From an uncultured Bacteroidota bacterium (GTDB taxonomy: Bacteria > Bacteroidota > Bacteroidia > UBA4408): a stretch of DNA of 64,000 bases. The position numbers were made by a program, and so were the translations under genes. Within the stretch, counting starts at the first letter, position 1. Each line of letters starts with the position of its first letter. A model generated the notes under the pieces. It saw only the letters and a list, made by a program, of their open reading frames with translations. It did no database searches and was not told where the DNA came from. The DNA is taken from contig CAIKXD010000081.1 of NCBI GenBank assembly GCA_903831265.1, forward strand, positions 1,737-65,736, in the 5' to 3' direction. Shown one piece after another: positions 439-11,274 of this stretch.

Positions 439-1512
439 TTAATTTGCTGCTCTGTTAAGCAACAAATGCTCTAACCATATAGTTTCTGCATAAGCAACTG
501 AAAAATACTTGATATGCGAAGCACTTAAAAACGATGCTGATCTTAGCCATTTTGGGCTCACTTCCCCTAGTATTCCTGCAATAAAAAATGGGTAGTGAGC
601 CTTTTCTTTGTGGCTTGGTGCAGTAACAAAATATAAACTTGGTTTGAGTTTTTGAATGCAAATGGTTAATAGTAGCCGCTCTATAGTGTTAATCTTATTA
701 TTACTGCGCATTTTAACGCATTGGTTATACAACTTTTCTTGATAAGCTAATAATTGTGTTACATTTAAATCTATCATCAAACGAACAACATGATAAATAA
801 TTAAAATAACAGAAGGGTAATAAGGCGACATTGAGTAAGGCCTTTTCATATAATCATCTTCAGCTATACATTTTGAAATTATTTCTAAGCTTTGCTCATC
901 TTGCTCATTGAGCGGAAGCTGATAATAATATATAAAATATAGTGCATTGCACAAAGCACATATATCAAAAGCAGATGGCATGTTTTTTACAAAAAATGTA
1001 TTATAGGTTTTAAAATTCTCATAACCTTTAACAGGCTTATCGGGCCATTTTAAATTTCCTAATGCAAAACTTACCATTTTGCTTTTTAATAACAGTTGGT
1101 CATCATTTGTGTGTTTTTTTACAAGATGTATCATTGCACTGTCATCAATGTCATCAGGAATCATAAAAAATGTAAACCGTTTGGCAAAATACCCCCCCGG
1201 AAAATGCCTGCTCGGCTTGGTTTGCCAAAAATTATACGAAGCATGGCCGTCTTTATTCCTATACTTTTCGAAAGCTGGGTTCATTTTCTCCAAAATACTA
1301 TTTGCCAAAATCAACTCTTCTTTTGTAAATAGTTTTTTATAACGCATTAAAGTAAAACCAATACAAGCCGTAAAAAAAGCAGTATTATCTTTTCTTTTGT
1401 AAAGGCCTTTTGCCCACCTACGCTCACATGCAAACAAACCATCTGTAAAATACAAATCATTTTTGCATTGCAAACTCGCTACAACTTGTAATTGCGCTAA
1501 TACAGGATTCAT
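439..1512 (-). CDS. hypothetical protein (357 aa, no recognisable motif)
   Basis: Long uninterrupted ORF with non-repetitive composition. It is convergent with folE. Confidence 0.6.
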   Translation of the reverse strand: MNPVLAQLQVVASLQCKNDLYFTDGLFACERRWAKGLYKRKDNTAFFTACIGFTLMRYKKLFTKEELILANSILEKMNPAFEKYRNKDGHASYNFWQTKPSRHFPGGYFAKRFTFFMIPDDIDDSAMIHLVKKHTNDDQLLLKSKMVSFALGNLKWPDKPVKGYENFKTYNTFFVKNMPSAFDICALCNALYFIYYYQLPLNEQDEQSLEIISKCIAEDDYMKRPYSMSPYYPSVILIIYHVVRLMIDLNVTQLLAYQEKLYNQCVKMRSNNKINTIERLLLTICIQKLKPSLYFVTAPSHKEKAHYPFFIAGILGEVSPKWLRSASFLSASHIKYFSVAYAETIWLEHLLLNRAAN

Positions 1513-2812: not shown

Positions 2813-3670
2813 TTATTGCTTAATCAACTTACAACTGTAATCAATACCATCAATAGTAAGTTTACAAAAGTAAACTCCCGCATTTAATTCAGAGGTATTA
2901 ATTTCCGCCTTAAACTTGCCTTCTGGCATATTTTCATGCAACACTTCCTTTACCATATTTCCCAACATATCGTAAACGTTTAACCTAACCTCACTATATT
3001 CTTTTTTATTAAAAACCAAATAAGCCATTTCCCGTGCAGGATTCGGATAAAGCTGTTCTATAATTTGTTTATTTTTATCACCGCTCAACAGGCCTGTATT
3101 ATCGGCACCAAGGTATAAATCATCAATAATAACTGAAGAGCTAACATTCAAGCTATTTCCAACAGGTGCAGTTATAGCAAAATAAATACTACCCTGCCCA
3201 AATAAAGATGGACCCAAAAAAGGCAATACATTTACAAATTTGTATTGATACACGTTGCTTACCGTGCTAAAAGTTTGATCACCATAAGCCAATATGTTAG
3301 CATTAGTGTCAGTTTCTATTAAGGTAAAAGAAGCATTAATGCTGTTGTTACCTTGTAAATTTCCTTTCATCCAAAAAGTAAGCACCTCGGGCATCGTGGT
3401 TAATGGAAAAATATTTAGCGCATAAGGCGCCACAGCTATGCCATTACTATCTAACGCCACATTCATACTTAAAGCAAAATCACCACCATGCGCATCGTTA
3501 GATTGTATGGCAGTTCCTGGATCATAAAAATTAGATGTTTGCCAGTAAACTGGATCACCAGCATCCCAAAGCTCAAAAGATGGATTTTGAAGTTGGCAAA
3601 AAGCGCTGTGTGTAAACGCTAAAATAAAAACCAAAAAGAAATATTTTTTCATAAACACAAATATAAGCAA
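2813..3670 (-). CDS. secreted protein with T9SS C-terminal sorting domain
   Basis: N-terminal signal peptide. The last ~80 aa (LYPNPAREMAYLVF...VYDMLGNMV...AGVYFCKLTIDG...KLIKQ) match the Por secretion-tail pattern. Confidence 0.8.
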   Translation of the reverse strand: MLIFVFMKKYFFLVFILAFTHSAFCQLQNPSFELWDAGDPVYWQTSNFYDPGTAIQSNDAHGGDFALSMNVALDSNGIAVAPYALNIFPLTTMPEVLTFWMKGNLQGNNSINASFTLIETDTNANILAYGDQTFSTVSNVYQYKFVNVLPFLGPSLFGQGSIYFAITAPVGNSLNVSSSVIIDDLYLGADNTGLLSGDKNKQIIEQLYPNPAREMAYLVFNKKEYSEVRLNVYDMLGNMVKEVLHENMPEGKFKAEINTSELNAGVYFCKLTIDGIDYSCKLIKQ

Positions 3671-3724
3671 CCCATTTGAAATTAGTTACAATTAATATAA
3701 ATTGATGTATCAATCGATTAAATT

Positions 3725-4464
3725 GGGCGCATCCCTTCCATTTTTATTCAGCAATAGCTAACATTAAACCTAGGTATAAAAAATGAAAGGGTCAGGCCAT
3801 CCGCTATATCTTTTTGTGCAGATAAATTCATTTTCTAATGCAAGTGCTACCATGCACAAAAAAGGATGTCGCTGCTGTCCTTTGCGCTCTTAAAATTTGT
3901 CTTTCATAATGAATCTTTTAGTTGCTACTTTGCCCCCCGTAAAATCCAAGCTTTGCTTCGTTTTTCTTTAATTTAGCAAGTTGTACTTGCGTGGATATGA
4001 TTTGAATATTGTTTTTGAGTATCAAACTTAACAATATGTCAGAAAGCGTAAAATCGAAGCTTTGCTTCGTTTTCTTTAATTTAGCAAGTTGTACTTGCGT
4101 GGATATGGTTTGAATGTTGTTTTTTAGTATCAAACTCAACAATATGTCAGAAAGCTTTAAAGTTTTTCGCTCTCGCTAGCGTCCCGCGAGTGAGCGCACC
4201 GAGAGGCCTCCGGCCTGTATAAAGAATAGTTTAGCAGTTATATTTAATTTAAGTTCTTTCAAATAAAGGTTTACTCTTTGTTGGTTTCACTACAAAAGCG
4301 AGATCACCAACAAAGCACTAATGCGCAAGGGACAAAAGCGGCATCCTTTTTTAGCAAAGCCTTTGTGTTGCAAAAAAAGATACAGCGGATGGCCCGGCCC
4401 TTCCATTTTTTACTATGAGATTAATTTGAATGCGTATTTTTATAAAAATGGGAGGGATGCGCCC
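3725..4464. repeat. ORF-free structured element bounded by block-wise inverted repeats (arms 3725-3887 and 4323-4464)
   Basis: Reverse-complement blocks are 3725-3745 vs 4444-4464 (20/21), 3778-3820 vs 4368-4411 (38/43) and 3858-3887 vs 4323-4352 (26/30). Each block carries a CATCC/GGATG core. The spacers between blocks are unrelated. Confidence 0.85.
3939..4155. repeat. tandem direct repeat, 109 nt + 108 nt
   Basis: Units 3939-4047 and 4048-4155 differ by 5 substitutions and 1 indel. Each unit holds three small hairpins, for example 4055-4069, 4084-4098 and 4114-4145. Confidence 0.95.
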
Positions 4465-4473
4465 TAAAGTGTA

Positions 4474-4929
4474 TTAAATGACACTTTCTAACGCCTTTAA
4501 TGCTCTATCTTCCTGCGCACGCATTTCAACTTGTTCTGCTGCCTTCTTATCTTTAAATCCACACAGATGCAGAACGCCATGTATTATCACACGGTGTAAC
4601 TCATTTACATAACTTGTTTTAAATGTTTTTGCGTTTTCTTTAACACGTTCAATGCTTATGTAAATTTCGCCAATAATGGCTTTGGATACAGCTTTAGAAG
4701 GTTCAGTATAATCAAAGGTTATAATATCTGTAAAAGTATCATGCCCTAAATATTGTTGATTCATGTTCAACAAATATTCATCAGAGCAAAAGATAAAATC
4801 TATCTGCTCAATTTTACAATGATGTGTGTGCGTCACATCAAAAATCCACTGCCTAAGTATATTTTTTTGCTTTGGTGCGAAAGCCACATCAGCCTTTAAA
4901 AAGTTAATGGCCACTAATTTATTTTCCAA
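4474..4929 (-). CDS. ybeY: rRNA maturation RNase YbeY
   Basis: 151 aa with the metal-binding motif HRVIIHGVLHLCGFKD near the C-terminus. Confidence 0.9.
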   Translation of the reverse strand: MENKLVAINFLKADVAFAPKQKNILRQWIFDVTHTHHCKIEQIDFIFCSDEYLLNMNQQYLGHDTFTDIITFDYTEPSKAVSKAIIGEIYISIERVKENAKTFKTSYVNELHRVIIHGVLHLCGFKDKKAAEQVEMRAQEDRALKALESVI

Positions 4930-5408: not shown

Positions 5409-8400
5409 TTACCTTATTTTTATAAAATTGATTTAATGATGGTGGAATGGTTTGTAACAACTCCGCCTCTTTTTGTTTCAGCGTGTTATACTCTAGAAAT
5501 TGATTTTGGTTACGAAAAATTTCATTTTTTGGTTCTTGAGATTCTCTTTTTTCATCTAATTCTCTTTCCCGTTCTGCCTTCTCGGCTTCCAACAACCTTG
5601 TTAAAATTTCTTGCTGCCGTCTTAAAGTTTCTTGGCTAATCATTTTATTTACCAAATCGTTTTCGGTCTTCTCCATATCTTCGGCCAGCTTACTTAAGCC
5701 GCCATTGCCTTGCTTGCCATCTTTGCCCATTTTATCGGCTGCCTTTTGCAGTTCTCTTCTTAATGCTTCTTGTTGTGCCGCTAATTTAGCCAAACCTTCA
5801 CTCATGCCGCCATCACCTGCTCCACCCGATTTACTTTCCCCTTTTTCTTTCCCCTTTTTTCCTTCTTTACCCTTTTCTTTAGCCATTTGTTCTTTCATTT
5901 TCTCCATTTGCTTGTTTATTTGCTCCTGCATGGATTTCATTTTACTCATAGAAGGCTTGCTGCCACTGCCTCCTGGCTTTTTACAACTTCCCGATCCCGG
6001 TTTCGAATTCTTGTTTTGTTGCTGCTGCTGTTGCATTTTCTGTAAAGATTCGCTCAACAATAAAGCTAAATTATTTACGGCAGTCATTACATATTGCCCT
6101 CTTGAGGCGGCTTCCTGCGTATTTCTATCTTCCATATTGCGCAAAGCCTTGGTCATATTGCTATTGATATCAGCAATTTCGCGGTTTACATAGGCCTCAA
6201 TTTTAGGTTGTCTTTTACTTAAAGCAAACAATGAATCTTCAATCATTTTGGCATCATCCTTAATTTTCTTTTGCTGCTGAATCAACTTTAAATACTGCGG
6301 ATTTGCGCGATCTACAACTTTAATTTTATTCATCAAATCTTCTTCAGCAAATGAAACAGCCAACAGATTTTCTAATATTTGTCTTAATGCTTGCTCATCT
6401 TCTCCCTCTTGTTCCTCTTCGGCTTTGGCTTGTTGCATTTTTTTACTCATTTCATCCATTTTTTCAGCTGCGCTTTTTTGCGATTTTGATGCTTTTTTAT
6501 TTTGCTTCTGCTTTAGTTGTTCGCCACTGTCCTCCATATCTTTCTTAATTTCCTCTTCTTGCTTTTGTGTATCTGGCATCTTCATTGGATCTTCTAATTC
6601 TGCATTCTTCTTCTCCATATCATCAATGTCTTTCTTAAGGTCATCAAATTTTTTATTGAGCTCTTCTTGTTCCTTTTTTAAGGCTGCATTATCTCCTTGT
6701 TTATTTTCGGTTTTTTCGGCCAATTTCTTTTGCTCCTCTGCAAGCTTATCCAAATTCTTAATGGCATCATCTAACTTTTGCTCCAATTCCATTTTTTTAA
6801 ATGCTTCAAGTGTTCTGTCTAATTCTTTTTCCATGTCTTTAGCATCTAATTTCATTTTCTCTAAGGCATCTTGTGTTTTCTCCTTATCCATTTGTTGCAA
6901 CAACTTTTCAAGTTCTTTTAACTTCTCTTTCATTTCTTCCGTCATGATGTTTTTCATGAGCTCTTCCAATTGCTTGTGCTTTTCTAATAATTGTTCATCA
7001 GGATTTTTAAACTCGTTTTGTTTTTCAAAACTTTGCTTGTTTTCTTTTTCAAGATTTTCTACTTGATTTTGAAGGTCTTTTTGCTTTTCAACTAAGTCTT
7101 TCATCTTTTTGATGTCATCAAAATTGAGTGTTTTTTTGTCAATTAACTTTTTGTTCATCTCATTCATTTCACGCTGTAAATCCTTAGCTTGTTGAATTGA
7201 CGCTGTTAATTCTTCTTTTATTTTTTGATTGTCTTTATCAGCATTTGCGGCTATCTCTTTTAGTGAGGGAGCTTTGTATGCCATTTTTTGACTAAGAGTT
7301 GATTTATAACCATTTAAGGCATCATTATCTCTTACTTCAAAATAATATTCATAAGAGTCGCCTGCTTGCATACCTATCCTGTCTAAATCCCAATGGTAAA
7401 AGAAATTATCTTGAGCAATATTTTTATTAATAGGAATCAACACTTTTATTTCTTTAGCCACTGCGTTATTTGAATCTGCATTTGTTTTTTTATAGCAAAA
7501 ATTCAAATCATAAAATCCATAATCATCTTTGATATCGCCCTTAAAATATACATGTTTTGCCGAATTACTATCCACCTTTTCCTCTACTTTAATGGCAGGG
7601 TAAACATCAGGAATAACTTCAATGGTATAATTAATTGCTTCTTTCCCCTTTAAATATTGATTAGAGGTAAGCAAACTATAATTCTGGTTTTGAACAAAAG
7701 TTTTAGACATAGTAAACTCATTGTCATTAATCTGCTTTAAGTCAAAAATACTACCATTAAAATCTGCAATTAGCTTGCTTGTGTTTTGTGTTTTGATAGT
7801 CCATGTTACTTTAGTGCCAGCAGGTATAAGTAAGTCTCCAGTATTGTTAATTTGTTCTGTCTTTTTTTGTAGGTAATATGGATAAACAAGATTAACATTA
7901 AAATTTACTAAAGTTGGCTTTGGCAAGGCTTTCAACTCAAATGGTTTACTGTAAAATCCATCTGCAAATAATCTAAAAATAATATTTTTAGGTAAGTTTT
8001 TTATTAAATAGGTAAAATGTAATTTATCACTTTTATCAAGCCTAAATTGATTGTTTTCTATTTCAATAAAAGCTACATCAGGGATTTCTGTGCCTTGCAC
8101 TTTTATTTTAAGTTCAAAATCTTGTTGTTGTATGCCAAGTAAATTCTCATTTTCAATAGTAAAAGTAAAAGGTGCTTGTTTCTCGAAGTAAGTTTCGTGT
8201 GCCACAATGCGTTTGGTACTTTCAGTTAAAATACTTGGTGATGCCACAAGCAAAGCTAAAATAATTGCTAATGGTGCTACAGCATATTTAAGGTACTTTC
8301 TATTTTGAGATAAATCGATAGCTGCAGTAAAAGGAATAAGCTTTAATTCCACAATTTTTTGATTGATTGCAGCTTCTAATAAAGCAAGTGAATTTTGATT

Positions 8401-8760
8401 ATCAACCCCATTTTCGTGCAGCTGCAATACATTAATTAACTTATCTTTTACATGTTGAAAATGTGTTCCAATAATTTGTGCAGCTTGGTGATGGCTAATT
8501 ACTACACCTAATTTATATAGTTTACTCAATGGAATTACAACCCAAATGCCAAGCACAACTGCTGTAGACATAATAAATCCATAAAACAAGGTTGTTCTAA
8601 CAGTGGTCCCAAAATTTCCAAAATACTCCAGTAAGGTAATGCTTAAAAAAGATAGCAATAAAAGCGAGAGGCTATAAATTGTGCCTCTTATGAGTAAATT
8701 CGTATAATATTTTCTAATAAACTCATCCAGTTTTTGAATGAGTAATTCGTAATTATTCAT
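5383..8760 (-). CDS. large membrane-anchored coiled-coil protein (DUF4175-like)
   Basis: 1125 aa with N-terminal transmembrane helices and a long K/E/Q-rich coiled-coil and low-complexity C-terminal half. It overlaps the downstream kinase gene by 26 nt. Confidence 0.7.
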   Translation of the reverse strand: MNNYELLIQKLDEFIRKYYTNLLIRGTIYSLSLLLLSFLSITLLEYFGNFGTTVRTTLFYGFIMSTAVVLGIWVVIPLSKLYKLGVVISHHQAAQIIGTHFQHVKDKLINVLQLHENGVDNQNSLALLEAAINQKIVELKLIPFTAAIDLSQNRKYLKYAVAPLAIILALLVASPSILTESTKRIVAHETYFEKQAPFTFTIENENLLGIQQQDFELKIKVQGTEIPDVAFIEIENNQFRLDKSDKLHFTYLIKNLPKNIIFRLFADGFYSKPFELKALPKPTLVNFNVNLVYPYYLQKKTEQINNTGDLLIPAGTKVTWTIKTQNTSKLIADFNGSIFDLKQINDNEFTMSKTFVQNQNYSLLTSNQYLKGKEAINYTIEVIPDVYPAIKVEEKVDSNSAKHVYFKGDIKDDYGFYDLNFCYKKTNADSNNAVAKEIKVLIPINKNIAQDNFFYHWDLDRIGMQAGDSYEYYFEVRDNDALNGYKSTLSQKMAYKAPSLKEIAANADKDNQKIKEELTASIQQAKDLQREMNEMNKKLIDKKTLNFDDIKKMKDLVEKQKDLQNQVENLEKENKQSFEKQNEFKNPDEQLLEKHKQLEELMKNIMTEEMKEKLKELEKLLQQMDKEKTQDALEKMKLDAKDMEKELDRTLEAFKKMELEQKLDDAIKNLDKLAEEQKKLAEKTENKQGDNAALKKEQEELNKKFDDLKKDIDDMEKKNAELEDPMKMPDTQKQEEEIKKDMEDSGEQLKQKQNKKASKSQKSAAEKMDEMSKKMQQAKAEEEQEGEDEQALRQILENLLAVSFAEEDLMNKIKVVDRANPQYLKLIQQQKKIKDDAKMIEDSLFALSKRQPKIEAYVNREIADINSNMTKALRNMEDRNTQEAASRGQYVMTAVNNLALLLSESLQKMQQQQQQNKNSKPGSGSCKKPGGSGSKPSMSKMKSMQEQINKQMEKMKEQMAKEKGKEGKKGKEKGESKSGGAGDGGMSEGLAKLAAQQEALRRELQKAADKMGKDGKQGNGGLSKLAEDMEKTENDLVNKMISQETLRRQQEILTRLLEAEKAERERELDEKRESQEPKNEIFRNQNQFLEYNTLKQKEAELLQTIPPSLNQFYKNKVNEYFNNFN

Positions 8761-9327
8761 AGCGTCTTAAGGCATTACTAAACATTTAGTACTTTAAATG
8801 TTGACTCCAAATTTAAGAAAAAATAAAACGTATTGCTGTTAAAACTATTTAAGCGCGTTAATAGTTGTGAATAAAATAACCTATTGGCTAAAATGAAGCC
8901 AGAACGCTCTTTTAATTTTAAACTACAGTTTAAAATTTACTATTTGATTATGCAATATTCCCCAAAAAAACTGCTAGAGAGCTTAGTTTAAAAGATTTTA
9001 AATTTTTAATCCGCTTACAATTCTTTTTTAGGTTAACTCCAGCAGATAATACCCGCTGCTAATCCGATAAAAACTAAAATTTGGGTTAAAGAGCGTTAGT
9101 AACAAAAACTATAATCACAAATTAGAAATCTATACACAAAGCTTTCAAAATTTAATTTTTATTGGATCCCTTCAATATTCAAATACCTAAGCCAATTGCT
9201 TAATTAACTTCTAAATTATAAACACTATACAATCTTAAATTGCTTATTTCTACCGATATACTTATTTTAATGCCCAATGGTTGAAACAAATTCTTGGTTT
9301 TTAAATATAATGTCTTAATTTTGTTCG

Positions 9328-10118: not shown

Positions 10119-10523
10119 ATGTTACTTGCCAATATTGTTTATTCAGTTGTATTTAATAAATGTCCTCAGTGCCATCAGGGCAAAGTATTAACTTATCCCC
10201 CCTATCAAATAAATAAATTGCTTGATACAGGAGAATCATGTGTTCATTGTGAATTAAAATATGAAAAAGAACCAGGTTTTTTTTATGGTGCTATGTATGT
10301 TTCATACGCCTTAACTTCTGGTGTTTTTATCGTAGCGTATTTATTGCAGTTATTGGTATTAGACTTACCTGAAACACAATTTGCATTATCAATGGTTAGC
10401 TTCATATTGCTTACTTTTCCTTTAGTTGCAAGATGGTCAAGACTATTATGGCTTAACTTTTTTGTTTCTTACGATCCTTTAAAATCTAATATTTCAATTT
10501 CTAAACAAAGCAACTCTAAATAA
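10119..10523 (+). CDS. DUF983-like small membrane protein
   Basis: CPQC...CVHC zinc-ribbon-like pair followed by two transmembrane helices. The internal ATG at 10119 is preferred over the GTG at 10071. Confidence 0.65.
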
Positions 10524-10525
10524 AA

Positions 10526-10822
10526 ATGGCAACTTTTAATGAAATAATTCAATCAGAAAAACCGGTGCTCATCGACTTTTTTGCCGAATGGTGTGGGCCT
10601 TGTAAAATGATGAAACCAATTTTAGAGGATTTAAAATCTTCCATTGGCGAAAAAGCAACCATCATTAAAATTGATGTTGACAAAAACCCACAAGTGGCTG
10701 CACAATACAAAATTCAGGGTGTCCCTACTTTAATGATATTTAAAAACGGGGAGGTTAAATGGCGTCAATCCGGGATAGTGCAAGCTAACCAATTAGAGGC
10801 ACTCATTAAGCAGTATCAGTGA
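10526..10822 (+). CDS. trxA: thioredoxin
   Basis: 98 aa with the WCGPC active site. Confidence 0.95.
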
Positions 10823-11274
10823 GTATTAAAAGTAAAGATTATCTGCTGGTAGCTTTGCAGCTCTTGCTCTTCACGCTCTATTTTTGGAGTCCCTACAAAA
10901 TAACTATTTACCAAGGAAATGATCTCAGTTTAATAGCTTTGGTTTTAGTAATAATTGGTGTAATAATCATGCTACTAGCGGTGTATGCTTTACGAAAAAG
11001 TATTTCTCCATTTCCTAGCCCTCGAAAAAATGCTGTTTTAATTCAACATGGTATTTTTAAATTTATTCGGCATCCAATTTATACTTCAATACTTTTAACA
11101 ACGCTTGGTTGGGCATTTTATAGCAATAGTTTATTCAGAATTTTTATTTTTGCCATGTTAATTATACTTTTCGAAATTAAATCAAATTTCGAAGAAGACT
11201 TATTGATAAAACGTTTTACAAAATACGCTAACTACATTAAAATAACTGGTAAATATCTTCCTAAAATAAATTAA
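10819..11274 (+). CDS. isoprenylcysteine carboxyl / phospholipid methyltransferase-family membrane protein
   Basis: Four hydrophobic helices and the motif [13 protein letters not shown] typical of the ICMT/PEMT family. GTG start overlaps the trxA stop (GTGA). Confidence 0.7.

Follow-up and report, generated by a model that had tools for sequence, protein, structure and literature searches.

Two inverted extended Flavo-1 units and a probable REP-RAYT relic between ybeY and a T9SS cargo gene in uncultured freshwater Bacteroidota

The ybeY-cargo gene interval

The window analyzed here is the whole 64-kb stretch of the contig, in which a 740-bp intergenic block (3725-4464) is flanked by two genes on the minus strand. 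The gene on the right is ybeY (4474..4914; Pfam PF02130, 96 bits) and the gene on the left encodes a T9SS cargo protein (2813..3652; Pfam PF18962, Por_Secre_tail), in agreement with the first-pass annotation made from the sequence alone. The three inverted-repeat blocks described in that annotation were all found in place around the ORF-poor interval: 3725-3747 with 4442-4464 (96% identity), 3777-3820 with 4369-4412 (89% identity), and 3858-3887 with 4323-4352 (87% identity). On recount the outer and inner match counts of 20/21 and 26/30 were reproduced and the middle block became 39/44 rather than 38/43; the substitutions within the blocks are eight transitions and two transversions, as reported. 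The spacers of the first pair are indeed non-homologous, but they are 31 nt long, not 32 nt. The terminal 21-mer occurs exactly twice in the 64 kb at three or fewer mismatches (shuffled sequences: expectation 0). Both proposed local folds (3733-3745 with 3779-3791 and 3809-3820 with 3853-3866) are real, and so are the tandem repeat, the GC island and the 10-bp-stem hairpin of the interior. The block contains three small ORFs only: one of 74 aa with a TTG start runs across the tandem repeat, and the right arm holds the other two (46 and 48 aa).

From the right arm's 3' end it is 6 to 9 nt to the ybeY stop codon. On the other side, pairing in the left arm stops at 3725, which is 54 nt from the cargo gene if translation starts at TTG 3670 and 72 nt if it starts at ATG 3652, which is the more likely start codon. 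Cargo proteins identical to that of the window are encoded on metagenome contigs; one of these, contig 3N63b1Xa, has a ybeY-cargo spacer of 265 bp, a point against the explanation preferred below, and was not recovered by the metagenome pattern scan. Four of the eight metagenome pattern matches were chance matches, and the pattern AGCCCGACC..CACGCCC applied to viral contigs gave nearly all chance matches in GC-rich contigs. Exact-protein look-ups with YbeY (two start choices) and with a 357-aa neighbor found no match, and the two 357-aa neighbors compared are not paralogues.

Each arm is an extended Flavo-1 unit

An Infernal/Rfam scan, which had been proposed as a check on the block, identified both arms. 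Each arm is one copy of the Flavo-1 motif (Rfam RF01705), and the two copies are inverted relative to each other. Both matches cover the full covariance model (positions 1-76) above its gathering threshold of 42 bits: 3786-3892 on the minus strand at 48.1 bits and 4320-4403 on the plus strand at 45.6 bits. No Rfam family besides Flavo-1 was matched in the 740-bp block. A three-way-junction model (R1) was built from 22 Flavo-1 units of other organisms, with the window sequences excluded; its sources were Weinberg seed members with their flanks, viral-contig loci and locus L012R, aligned with MAFFT (alignment A3). Over model positions 1-93, R1 matches the left arm at 3887-3722 (47.0 bits, E 4e-9) and the right arm at 4323-4467 (52.2 bits, E 2e-10), with zero matches beyond the two arms in the 64 kb.

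At about 145-166 nt, the extended Flavo-1 unit forms a three-way junction and ends in ...GC-CC(A/U). Two hairpins, the Flavo-1 hairpin (P2) and a variable one (P3), sit inside a closing stem of 5 bp (P1). The left unit (3722..3887, minus strand, RF01705 and R1) reads outward, toward the cargo gene. Its P1 is formed by GCGCA (3887-3883) with TGCGC (3731-3727), its P2 is the Flavo-1 hairpin on the minus strand, its P3 pairs 3791-3779 with 3745-3733, and the tail CCCAA occupies 3726-3722. The right unit (4323..4467, plus strand, RF01705 and R1) reads outward to the ybeY stop codon, antisense to ybeY. P1 pairs 4323-4327 with 4458-4462, P2 is the Flavo-1 hairpin on the plus strand, P3 pairs 4398-4410 with 4444-4456, and the tail is CCCTA (4463-4467). 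The RNAfold minimum-energy fold of the right arm is the three-way junction; that of the left arm forms P1 and P3 and pairs P2 in a way unlike the Flavo-1 model. The outermost block of the earlier annotation falls within the extended unit. Its reading of block-wise conservation as selected pairing is borne out as well: the blocks form the strands of the helices, and the unrelated spacers between them correspond to hairpin loops.

Covariation, another of the proposed checks, favors local pairing. The three-way-junction pairing is kept in 96.5% of cells on alignment A3 and 97.5% on alignment A6, and 0 of 500 shuffles reach these values. P1 is paired in 100% of cells, with compensatory changes at three of its five pairs; the 100% figure over 28 units comes from an alignment fitted to the model, and it is the same on the independent MAFFT alignment A3. 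Relatives keep the stems and swap the loops (L005 and L016), and an orthologous copy of the right arm adjoins ybeY in L016, L161 and L163. RNAfold over 35 Flavo-1 units favored the modelled strand in 24/35 and the complement in 6/35. The idea that the two arms are each other's closest relatives, as in a recent duplication-inversion, was rejected: the right arm is nearer to the unit of L013 than to the left arm. ARAGORN found no tRNA-like gene in the unit despite its CC(A) tail. In blastn searches one arm gave no match to plasmids and the whole element gave no match to phages.

The interior holds RAYT remains

RAYTs (REP-associated tyrosine transposases) are HUH Y1 transposases that act on single-stranded DNA hairpins. 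The window contains no RAYT coding sequence. Between the arms there are two tandem 108-nt units (3938..4155, plus strand; TRF: period 108, two copies, 94%). Each unit carries one REP-type hairpin with a GTAA tag, CGTAAAAT-CGAAGCTTTGCTTCG (3946-3960 and 4055-4069), a second hairpin, GCAAGTTGTACTTGC, a RAYT upstream region, and a RAYT start codon with the first codons, ATGTCAGAAAGC (4036-4047 and 4144-4155, continuing to about 4165, plus strand). By blastn and alignment the units match the 5' flank and the ATGTCAGAAAGCTATAAA start of the intact RAYT genes in L163 and L172. Judged by these alignments, the 108-nt unit represents a RAYT 5' flank together with the first four to seven codons of the gene.

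At the break point of the RAYT relic there is a GC-rich double hairpin (4168..4217; CTCGC..GCGAG and AGGCC..GGCCT). Related copies of this GC island are found in L014, L016 (three copies), L161 and L163, and there is no second copy in the 64-kb window. The 10-bp-stem hairpin CTTTGTTGGT / ACCAACAAAG (4276..4315) adjoins the 5' end of the right arm and is kept in L005, L015, L161 and L163. Scans for sigma-70 promoters and terminators gave only the REP hairpin itself above background. Neither the REP hairpin nor Flavo-1 occurs elsewhere in the 64 kb.

The same slot in related species

The lineage carrying this slot is one of uncultured freshwater Bacteroidota; YbeY and RAYT relatives are labelled Bacteroidota/Bacteroidia at source, and the window has a T9SS cargo gene. 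The block is found at the same chromosomal slot in species whose YbeY is 77-83% identical. In the sister species L163, with a ybeY 77% identical to that of the window, the hairpin, the GC island and the tandem units all recur between the same two arms, at 4448-4580 (minus strand) and 7727-7894 (plus strand). These arms also enclose an additional 175-aa protein, which is an intact RAYT in the ybeY-cargo slot: it matches NCBIfam NF047646 (REP-associated tyrosine transposase) at 95.8 bits with a cut-off of 80, also matches Pfam Y1_Tnp, and has the HVH and YIHNNP motifs. Two unrelated genes lie between these arms as well, which we count against the explanation preferred below.

The block is polymorphic and decaying among relatives. 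The right-hand arm of L163 no longer has the 5' half of P2, and in L161 the arms have diverged to 28-29 bits. L015 has a single repeat unit instead of two. The interior varies from one or two repeat units to a 2.7-kb insertion, or is absent. In the more distant L165, where the gene order is the same, the intergenic region is 298 bp and contains none of these parts.

RAYT loci and Flavo-1 units elsewhere

Inverted GTAC/GTAA-tagged double hairpins of the window-unit type flank the RAYT gene in L167, L168 and L172, and inverted hairpin repeats of 39-59 nt flank it in these three loci and in L173. The order RAYT or relic, REP hairpins, outward-reading Flavo-1 recurs at three independent loci (this slot, L167 and L013). 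No Flavo-1 was found within 4-8 kb of the RAYT of the same protein clade in L168, L169 and L172, or within 4-8 kb of a distant viral-contig homolog, L173 (39% identical); when viral contigs were searched with a RAYT profile, a single locus came up, and it has no Flavo-1. Because L168, L169, L172 and L173 have no Flavo-1, the motif is not obligatory at RAYT loci. Since the recurrence at three loci is offset by these RAYT loci without Flavo-1, a functional link between RAYT and Flavo-1 is only possible.

In 26 other loci the Flavo-1 units are mostly single. With a narrow regex, no GTA-tagged REP hairpin was seen near most of these units, nor, in loci L012-L163, near Flavo-1 units beyond the window and L167 loci; the regex is insensitive, as it missed the known REP array in L013. 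The neighboring gene on the 3' side lies on the opposite strand for 25 of 29 units (about 17 of 21 independent loci), and its stop codon is usually 2-90 nt from the Flavo-1 unit. Lagging-strand bias was set aside, by reasoning only, as the sole source of this orientation bias, which was judged too strong and too closely tied to stop codons.

Discussion

It is likely that the 740 bp are not one element but a decayed REP-RAYT locus, sitting in the ybeY-cargo slot between two inverted extended Flavo-1 units. A RAYT gene with its own GTA(A/C)-tagged REP hairpins would formerly have stood between the arms. The gene would have been lost in this strain, leaving a tandemly duplicated piece with the REP hairpin, the upstream region and the first four to seven codons; the GC-rich double hairpin that marks the break would be a further remnant, as would another hairpin. 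We infer that the window lineage lost the RAYT, rather than that the sister species L163 gained it. Without a RAYT, the block would be subject to decay only, by slippage, deletion and loop replacement. The inverted symmetry would then be the usual architecture of RAYT-flanking repeats, not the product of an invertase or the termini of a MITE, and the Flavo-1 units would presumably be part of the RAYT system rather than mere neighbors. Any current role would be that of a transcript-end structure between ybeY and the cargo gene.

The two arms could instead be independent Flavo-1 structures at transcript boundaries (3'-end protector, terminator, insulator, or antisense small RNA), with a functionally unconnected RAYT/REP nest landed between them. 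The preference for an opposite-strand 3' neighbor, which the right arm fits exactly, speaks for such independence, as do the predominance of single units and the four RAYT loci without Flavo-1. The Flavobacterium psychrophilum transcriptome study (PMC9723704) is also in its favor: it placed Flavo-1 matches variously within 5' transcribed regions, on the strand opposite such regions, or away from them. On the other side, RAYT or relic, REP hairpins and outward Flavo-1 occur together at three independent loci although RAYT is low-copy, the left arm is atypical in orientation (sense, upstream of the cargo gene), and neither strand has a U-tract after the structure. The decay of the units in the sister species L163 and L161 speaks against strong selection for a role at this site. 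We regard independence of the arms from the RAYT locus as unlikely.

The three proposals of the first-pass annotation fare worse, each as an account of the whole block. To call it MITE-like was right in so far as it is a transposase-less remnant, and wrong as to its kind: what lies here is the remnant of a REP-RAYT locus that occupies a fixed slot in several species. As a non-autonomous element moving as a unit, with the arms as terminal inverted repeats, the block would have in its favor the inverted termini of 21-23 nt at 96%, the lack of an ORF, and the presence, in L163, of a related transposase gene flanked by these arms. Yet there is no target-site duplication (flanks ...TTAAATT and TAAAGTG...), scans of the GTDB representative genomes and of JGI metagenomes with the terminal 19/21-mer turned up no more than four distinct loci and no second paired copy, single arms occur at other loci, and the block keeps one chromosomal slot across species. 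RAYT-type HUH enzymes (IS200/IS605 and RAYT families) are not known to use terminal inverted repeats with target-site duplications. The MITE reading is largely refuted and we hold it to be very improbable. An invertible switch, with the arms as invertase sites and a promoter-bearing interior that flips to switch the cargo gene, drew on the inverted repeats upstream of a surface/secreted-protein gene in a Bacteroidota genome and on one TAnnTTTG-like box directed toward the cargo gene (4030-4023). That box, taken as the switch promoter, is not conserved in the second repeat unit or in relatives. Immediately ahead of the cargo-gene ATG, and thus not within the element, the cargo gene keeps a conserved promoter-like TATATTTG. 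At the assembly level the orientation is the same in the five independent spanning assemblies (window, L001, L002, L005 and L015), and contig breaks, at window positions 3841, 4150, 4196 and 4249, fall within polymorphic interior parts rather than at the repeats' inner edges. The reported absence of a recombinase was upheld: among the 50 ORFs of 150 aa or more in the 64 kb, none has a recombinase domain. The arms are 145-166-nt structured units that occur singly elsewhere. Inversion is not supported by the assemblies, and as an explanation of the block it is extremely improbable. The suggestion of a large structured RNA fails for the whole; each arm alone is a strongly supported structured unit. 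Long-range pairing of the arms over 3725-4464 would agree with their mutual complementarity in a read-through transcript and with their covarying helices; the covariation nevertheless fits local three-way junctions and not arm-to-arm pairing, the interior is unconserved and varies freely, and Flavo-1 alone among Rfam families is matched, so that a single RNA over the block is hardly credible.

The decayed REP-RAYT locus between two Flavo-1 units remains the reading we prefer. The block is properly annotated as two Flavo-1 units and a RAYT pseudogene remnant, not as a phase switch of a T9SS cargo gene. The object itself is ordinary; the lead on Flavo-1 is modestly interesting. Three by-products could help to resolve this Rfam orphan: in its real form the unit extends past the Rfam model as a three-way junction; it is mostly antisense, a few to tens of nucleotides past the stop codon of a convergent gene; and it reads outward just outside the REP hairpins of a RAYT or relic in the three loci above. 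It is possible, if doubtful, that Flavo-1, an abundant family, is not an RNA gene but serves a REP-RAYT system of Bacteroidota as its large structured repeat. Equally tentative is its reading as a REPIN-like single-stranded DNA three-way junction that RAYT recognizes or uses as a landing site. Such a repeat would account for the many copies, the fixed orientation at gene ends and the place outside REP arrays. If the RAYT link is true, Flavo-1 would be reclassed from candidate sRNA to REP-like DNA repeat and a described REP-RAYT system would be gained for Bacteroidota.

Comparison with known systems

The block resembles the invertons of Bacteroidales in having inverted repeats upstream of a surface/secreted-protein gene. 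It differs in that its repeats are structured units of about 150 nt, compared with recombinase sites of 10-40 bp, and in that there is no invertase in the 64 kb and no flipped form among the assemblies. With pneumococcal BOX elements and E. coli BIMEs it shares modular short repeats, strain-variable copy number and complementary outer modules; there is no sequence relationship to either, and one module here is the 5' end of a transposase gene.

The REP/BIME and RAYT (TnpA-REP) systems of Proteobacteria (Nunvar, 2010, PMC2817692; Bertels and Rainey, 2011, PMC3116915) offer a closer parallel. In the sister species a Y1 HUH transposase of the RAYT equivalog is likewise present as a single-copy gene, tagged hairpins are inverted around the gene and form arrays of alternating orientation, and the locus occupies a fixed, inherited chromosomal site that is intergenic and near gene ends. 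The differences are the phylum (Bacteroidota), the tag (GTAC/GTAA vs GTAG), the lack of the gene in the window copy, and the larger structured repeat, Flavo-1, outside the REP arrays at three loci.

The Flavo-1 RNA motif was described by Weinberg et al. (2010, PMC2864571) and is filed in Rfam (RF01705) as an sRNA gene of unknown function. The arms share with it the phylum and a hairpin whose symmetric internal loops are rich in purines (..GNAGCGG.. on both strands). The Rfam model is a 76-position hairpin only, whereas the arms and the flanked seed members are longer; the extension described here adds a further hairpin, which is variable, and the stem GCGYR/YRCGC that closes the three-way junction, with the end GC-CC(A/U). 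The contexts of the units, mostly antisense after stop codons and beside RAYT/REP arrays, suit a REP-like repeat no less well than an sRNA gene.

Inverted repeats between ybeY and the cargo gene

Direct reading of the sequence confirmed the three pairs of inverted repeats in the block at 3725-4464: an outer pair (3725-3747 with 4442-4464, 96%), a middle pair (3777-3820 with 4369-4412, 89%) and an inner pair (3858-3887 with 4323-4352, 87%). A recount gave 20/21, 39/44 and 26/30 matches, with eight transitions and two transversions, in agreement with the eight transitions in ten substitutions of the first-pass annotation. With up to three mismatches allowed, the 64 kb contain two occurrences of the 21-nt terminus, and shuffled sequence contains none. 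The neighbours of the block, ybeY and a T9SS cargo gene (Por_Secre_tail), are both encoded on the minus strand. No recombinase or transposase domain was found in the 50 window ORFs of 150 aa or more, as had been stated. In the interior, the 108-nt tandem repeat in two copies (3938-4155), the GC island (4168-4217) and the hairpin with a 10-bp stem (4276-4315) are all present; a 74-aa TTG ORF through the tandem repeat and two short right-arm ORFs make up the whole ORF content of the block.

The arms are Flavo-1 units

The Rfam scan proposed with the first-pass annotation was run on the whole window and returned exactly two matches above the gathering score, both to Flavo-1 (RF01705) and one in each arm: 3786-3892 (minus strand, 48.1 bits) in the left arm and 4320-4403 (plus strand, 45.6 bits) in the right arm, with a cut-off of 42. 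Each arm thus holds one Flavo-1 hairpin, whose two strands are the two inner repeat blocks and whose apical loop is the unrelated spacer separating them. When first described, in 2010, Flavo-1 was presented as a candidate sRNA of Bacteroidetes, and no function was suggested for it (PMC2864571). In a Flavobacterium psychrophilum transcriptome, Flavo-1 matches were sense, antisense or outside transcribed regions and no conclusion was drawn (PMC9723704).

The outermost repeat block falls outside the Rfam model. Folding of each arm gave three helices with one shared junction: a 5-bp closing stem P1 (GCGCA/TGCGC), the Flavo-1 hairpin P2 and a second hairpin P3 (CCCTTCCATTTTT/AAAAATGGGAGGG). The outer block consists of the 3' strands of P3 and P1. 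Nearly the same layout was found in all ten seed members checked in the original Flavo-1 alignment with flanks: GCGUG, GCGUU or GCAUU, a hairpin, ..GCCCGACC, a variable hairpin, CACGC, AACGC or AAUGC, and then CC(A/U). The member AAMZ deviates slightly (GCCCGGUC, four of five P1 pairs). RNAfold formed at least P1 and P3 in most seed members, and 20 further units from viral-contig loci show the same layout.

An alignment of 22 Flavo-1 units, none from the window, was annotated for P1, the basal pairs of P2 and the base of P3. In this alignment 96.5% of cells are paired; shuffles reach 85% and slid partners 23-50%. P1 pairing is complete (100% of cells), and compensatory changes occur at three of the five P1 pairs. 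A covariance model built from it and searched against the window with filters off matched both arms end to end, at 4323-4467 on the plus strand (52.2 bits, E 2e-10) and at 3722-3887 on the minus strand (47.0 bits, E 4e-9). These are the only two credible matches; the third-ranked has an E-value of 4.5. A 28-unit alignment that includes the window arms, which is model-fitted and leans towards the model, has 97.5% of cells paired (P1 100%), with GCGUG/CACGC replaced by window-type GCGCA/UGCGC pairs. Each arm thus represents a single complete extended Flavo-1 unit, and both units read outward from the interior.

The interior is a RAYT remnant

The same two arms occupy the orthologous slot in L163 (GCA_964268615.1, YbeY 77% identical), at 4448-4580 (minus strand, after ybeY, where P2 has lost its 5' half) and 7727-7894 (plus strand, before the cargo gene). 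The interval contains the hairpin, GC island and tandem units known from the window and, in addition, about 2.7 kb that is absent there and holds a 213-aa ORF, a 38-aa ORF, a 175-aa protein, an Ig-like surface protein and a truncated second copy of the N-terminal half of the 175-aa protein. This protein matches the REP-associated tyrosine transposase (RAYT) family NF047646 (95.8 bits, cut-off 80) and Pfam Y1_Tnp, contains HVH and YIHNNP motifs, and has relatives widely labelled RayT in Bacteroidota. The 108-nt units of the window align with about 95 nt upstream of the L163 RAYT gene and with its start. The start appears as ATGTCAGAAAGC at 4036 and 4144, and the second copy runs on as ..TTTAAAGTTT. 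The upstream region and start of the RAYT gene at an unrelated locus, L172, align likewise. No further RAYT coding sequence was found in the window by tblastn. The interior is therefore what is left of a RAYT locus.

A GC-rich double-hairpin module (..CTCGC-N-GCGAGTGAG..AGGCCTCYGGCCT, or its core GGGACGCNAGCGAGNGCGAA) at window 4168-4217 recurs beside RAYT relics and REP units, at L014 170-225, L016 2780-2830, 2895-2945 and 3010-3066, L161 4738-4790, and L163 4660-4715, 5015-5045 and 6895-6925. The module is similar to GAGCGAAGCGAA-type sequences found in apical loops of F. johnsoniae-type Flavo-1 units.

The block in related genomes and alternative explanations

The block is present, with unchanged orientation, in two near-identical strains (L001 and L002, 99.6-99.8%) and in the strain L005 (96.8%). 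The left unit of L005 keeps its stems unchanged and has its whole apical loop swapped for unrelated sequence (window 3821-3852 versus L005 5419-5451), in strains otherwise 97% identical. L015 has one 108-nt unit versus two in the window. L016 is 83% identical in nucleotides over the right arm, ybeY and the next gene; its ybeY-side unit keeps the stems almost perfectly, differs in both loops and has an insertion at the P2 apex. Among orthologous slots retrieved via YbeY homologs, L161 (YbeY 83% aa identity) retains both arms in diverged form (28-29 bits) in a 652-bp spacer without tandem units. L165 (72%) keeps the ybeY-cargo gene order, and its AT-rich 298-bp spacer contains no arm, island or repeat. 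Divergence from L163 is uneven along the block: the left arm and cargo promoter region (window 3600-3887, L163 7727-8016) are 91% identical, and the ybeY side only 74%. The contig of L004 begins within the left apical loop (window 3841). Contig 3N63b1Xa (ERZ1426762) encodes an identical cargo protein and has a ybeY-cargo spacer of 265 bp versus 821 bp in the window, possibly a shortened form of the block.

Three explanations had been offered for the block. If it were an inverton, the arms would be the recombination sites of a phase switch; however, the five assemblies spanning the element show a single orientation, contigs break in polymorphic interior parts and not at repeat edges, no recombinase was found in the window, and the leftward TAnnTTTG box is not conserved. 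As a MITE, the whole block would be a non-autonomous transposon, for which other copies and border duplications are expected marks. No target-site duplication was found at the borders, and scans of GTDB representative genomes and JGI metagenomes recovered the terminal 19/21-mer at no more than four distinct loci, with no second copy of the paired block; the block keeps to one chromosomal slot across species. A single large RNA over the whole block accords poorly with an interior that is not conserved among relatives. The block is best explained as a dead RAYT locus enclosed by two copies of a known motif. The main rival concerns the relation between these parts and not their identity: the arms would be gene-end elements independent of the RAYT nest, which lies between them by chance.

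Orientation of Flavo-1 units

Neighbouring genes were called by simple ORF prediction for 29 units (the window and loci L012-L160). On their 3' side, 25 of them (about 17 of 21 independent loci) face a convergent gene on the opposite strand, whose stop codon usually lies 2-90 nt from the unit end, often within 2-20 nt. The 5'-side gene is also mostly on the opposite strand. A position shortly downstream of a gene, in antisense to that gene, is thus typical of the units. The right arm, 6-9 nt beyond the ybeY stop, conforms to it, and the left arm is an example of the rarer sense-upstream arrangement. Of 35 units, RNAfold favoured the Rfam strand for 24 and the complement for six. This orientation rule was not found described in the literature searched that mentions the motif.

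Possible association of Flavo-1 with RAYT

Several loci favour a functional link. In L167, a different locus with a RAYT 71% identical, the gene is followed by three REP copies and, 24 nt further on, by a same-strand Flavo-1 unit; in L013 a C-terminal RAYT relic is followed by two REP copies and a same-strand Flavo-1 unit. Downstream, the window and L163 show this order; upstream they show it mirrored. One F. psychrophilum seed member (NC_009613.1/2312573-2312089) has, after its Flavo-1 unit, a tandem array of at least three 60-nt repeats with GGUACCCGAGAGCAAAGCUCG, a GTAC-tagged hairpin like the REPs of the RAYT loci here. Other loci speak against the link. No Flavo-1 was found within 4-8 kb of the RAYT in L168, L169, L172 and L173, each with its own flanking repeats. 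Nearly all of about 20 distinct Flavo-1 loci sampled outside the lineage of the window have a single unit, and at nearly all of them no REP hairpin was found near Flavo-1. Overall, a real functional link is possible but somewhat doubtful, and a role of Flavo-1 as RAYT substrate, which is the stronger claim, is unlikely.

The exception among these loci, L149 (a 9.2-kb viral-labelled contig), has three units at 443-540 (+), 6250-6367 (-) and 9039-9138 (-). Two are near the contig ends, inverted and reading inward, a polarity opposite to that of the window pair.

The observation holds, known kinds of element largely account for it, and as a genomic object the block is ordinary. The leads to keep are the extended three-way-junction definition of Flavo-1, the orientation rule and the recurrent place outside RAYT/REP arrays.

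REP-type hairpins around RAYT genes

The first part of each 108-nt unit is a double hairpin, CGTAAAAT-CGAAGCTTTGCTTCG...GCAAGTTGTACTTGC, which also flanks the RAYT genes of L167 and L168 in inverted orientation. RAYTs are usually single-copy; L168 (GCA_963853145.1) has two 96%-identical copies (6001-6471 and 10382-10849) 4 kb apart, near a tmRNA gene (3224-3591). The RAYT of L172 lies between two arrays (7250-7990 and 8530-9250), each about 700 bp long and built of GTAA-tagged double hairpins in alternating orientation. The double hairpins are REP-type repeats with a GTAC or GTAA tag in the position of the GTAG tag of proteobacterial REPs, a comparison based on the REP literature (PMC2817692, PMC3733652). 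The alternating arrays of L172 are a BIME-like organisation, here in Bacteroidota.
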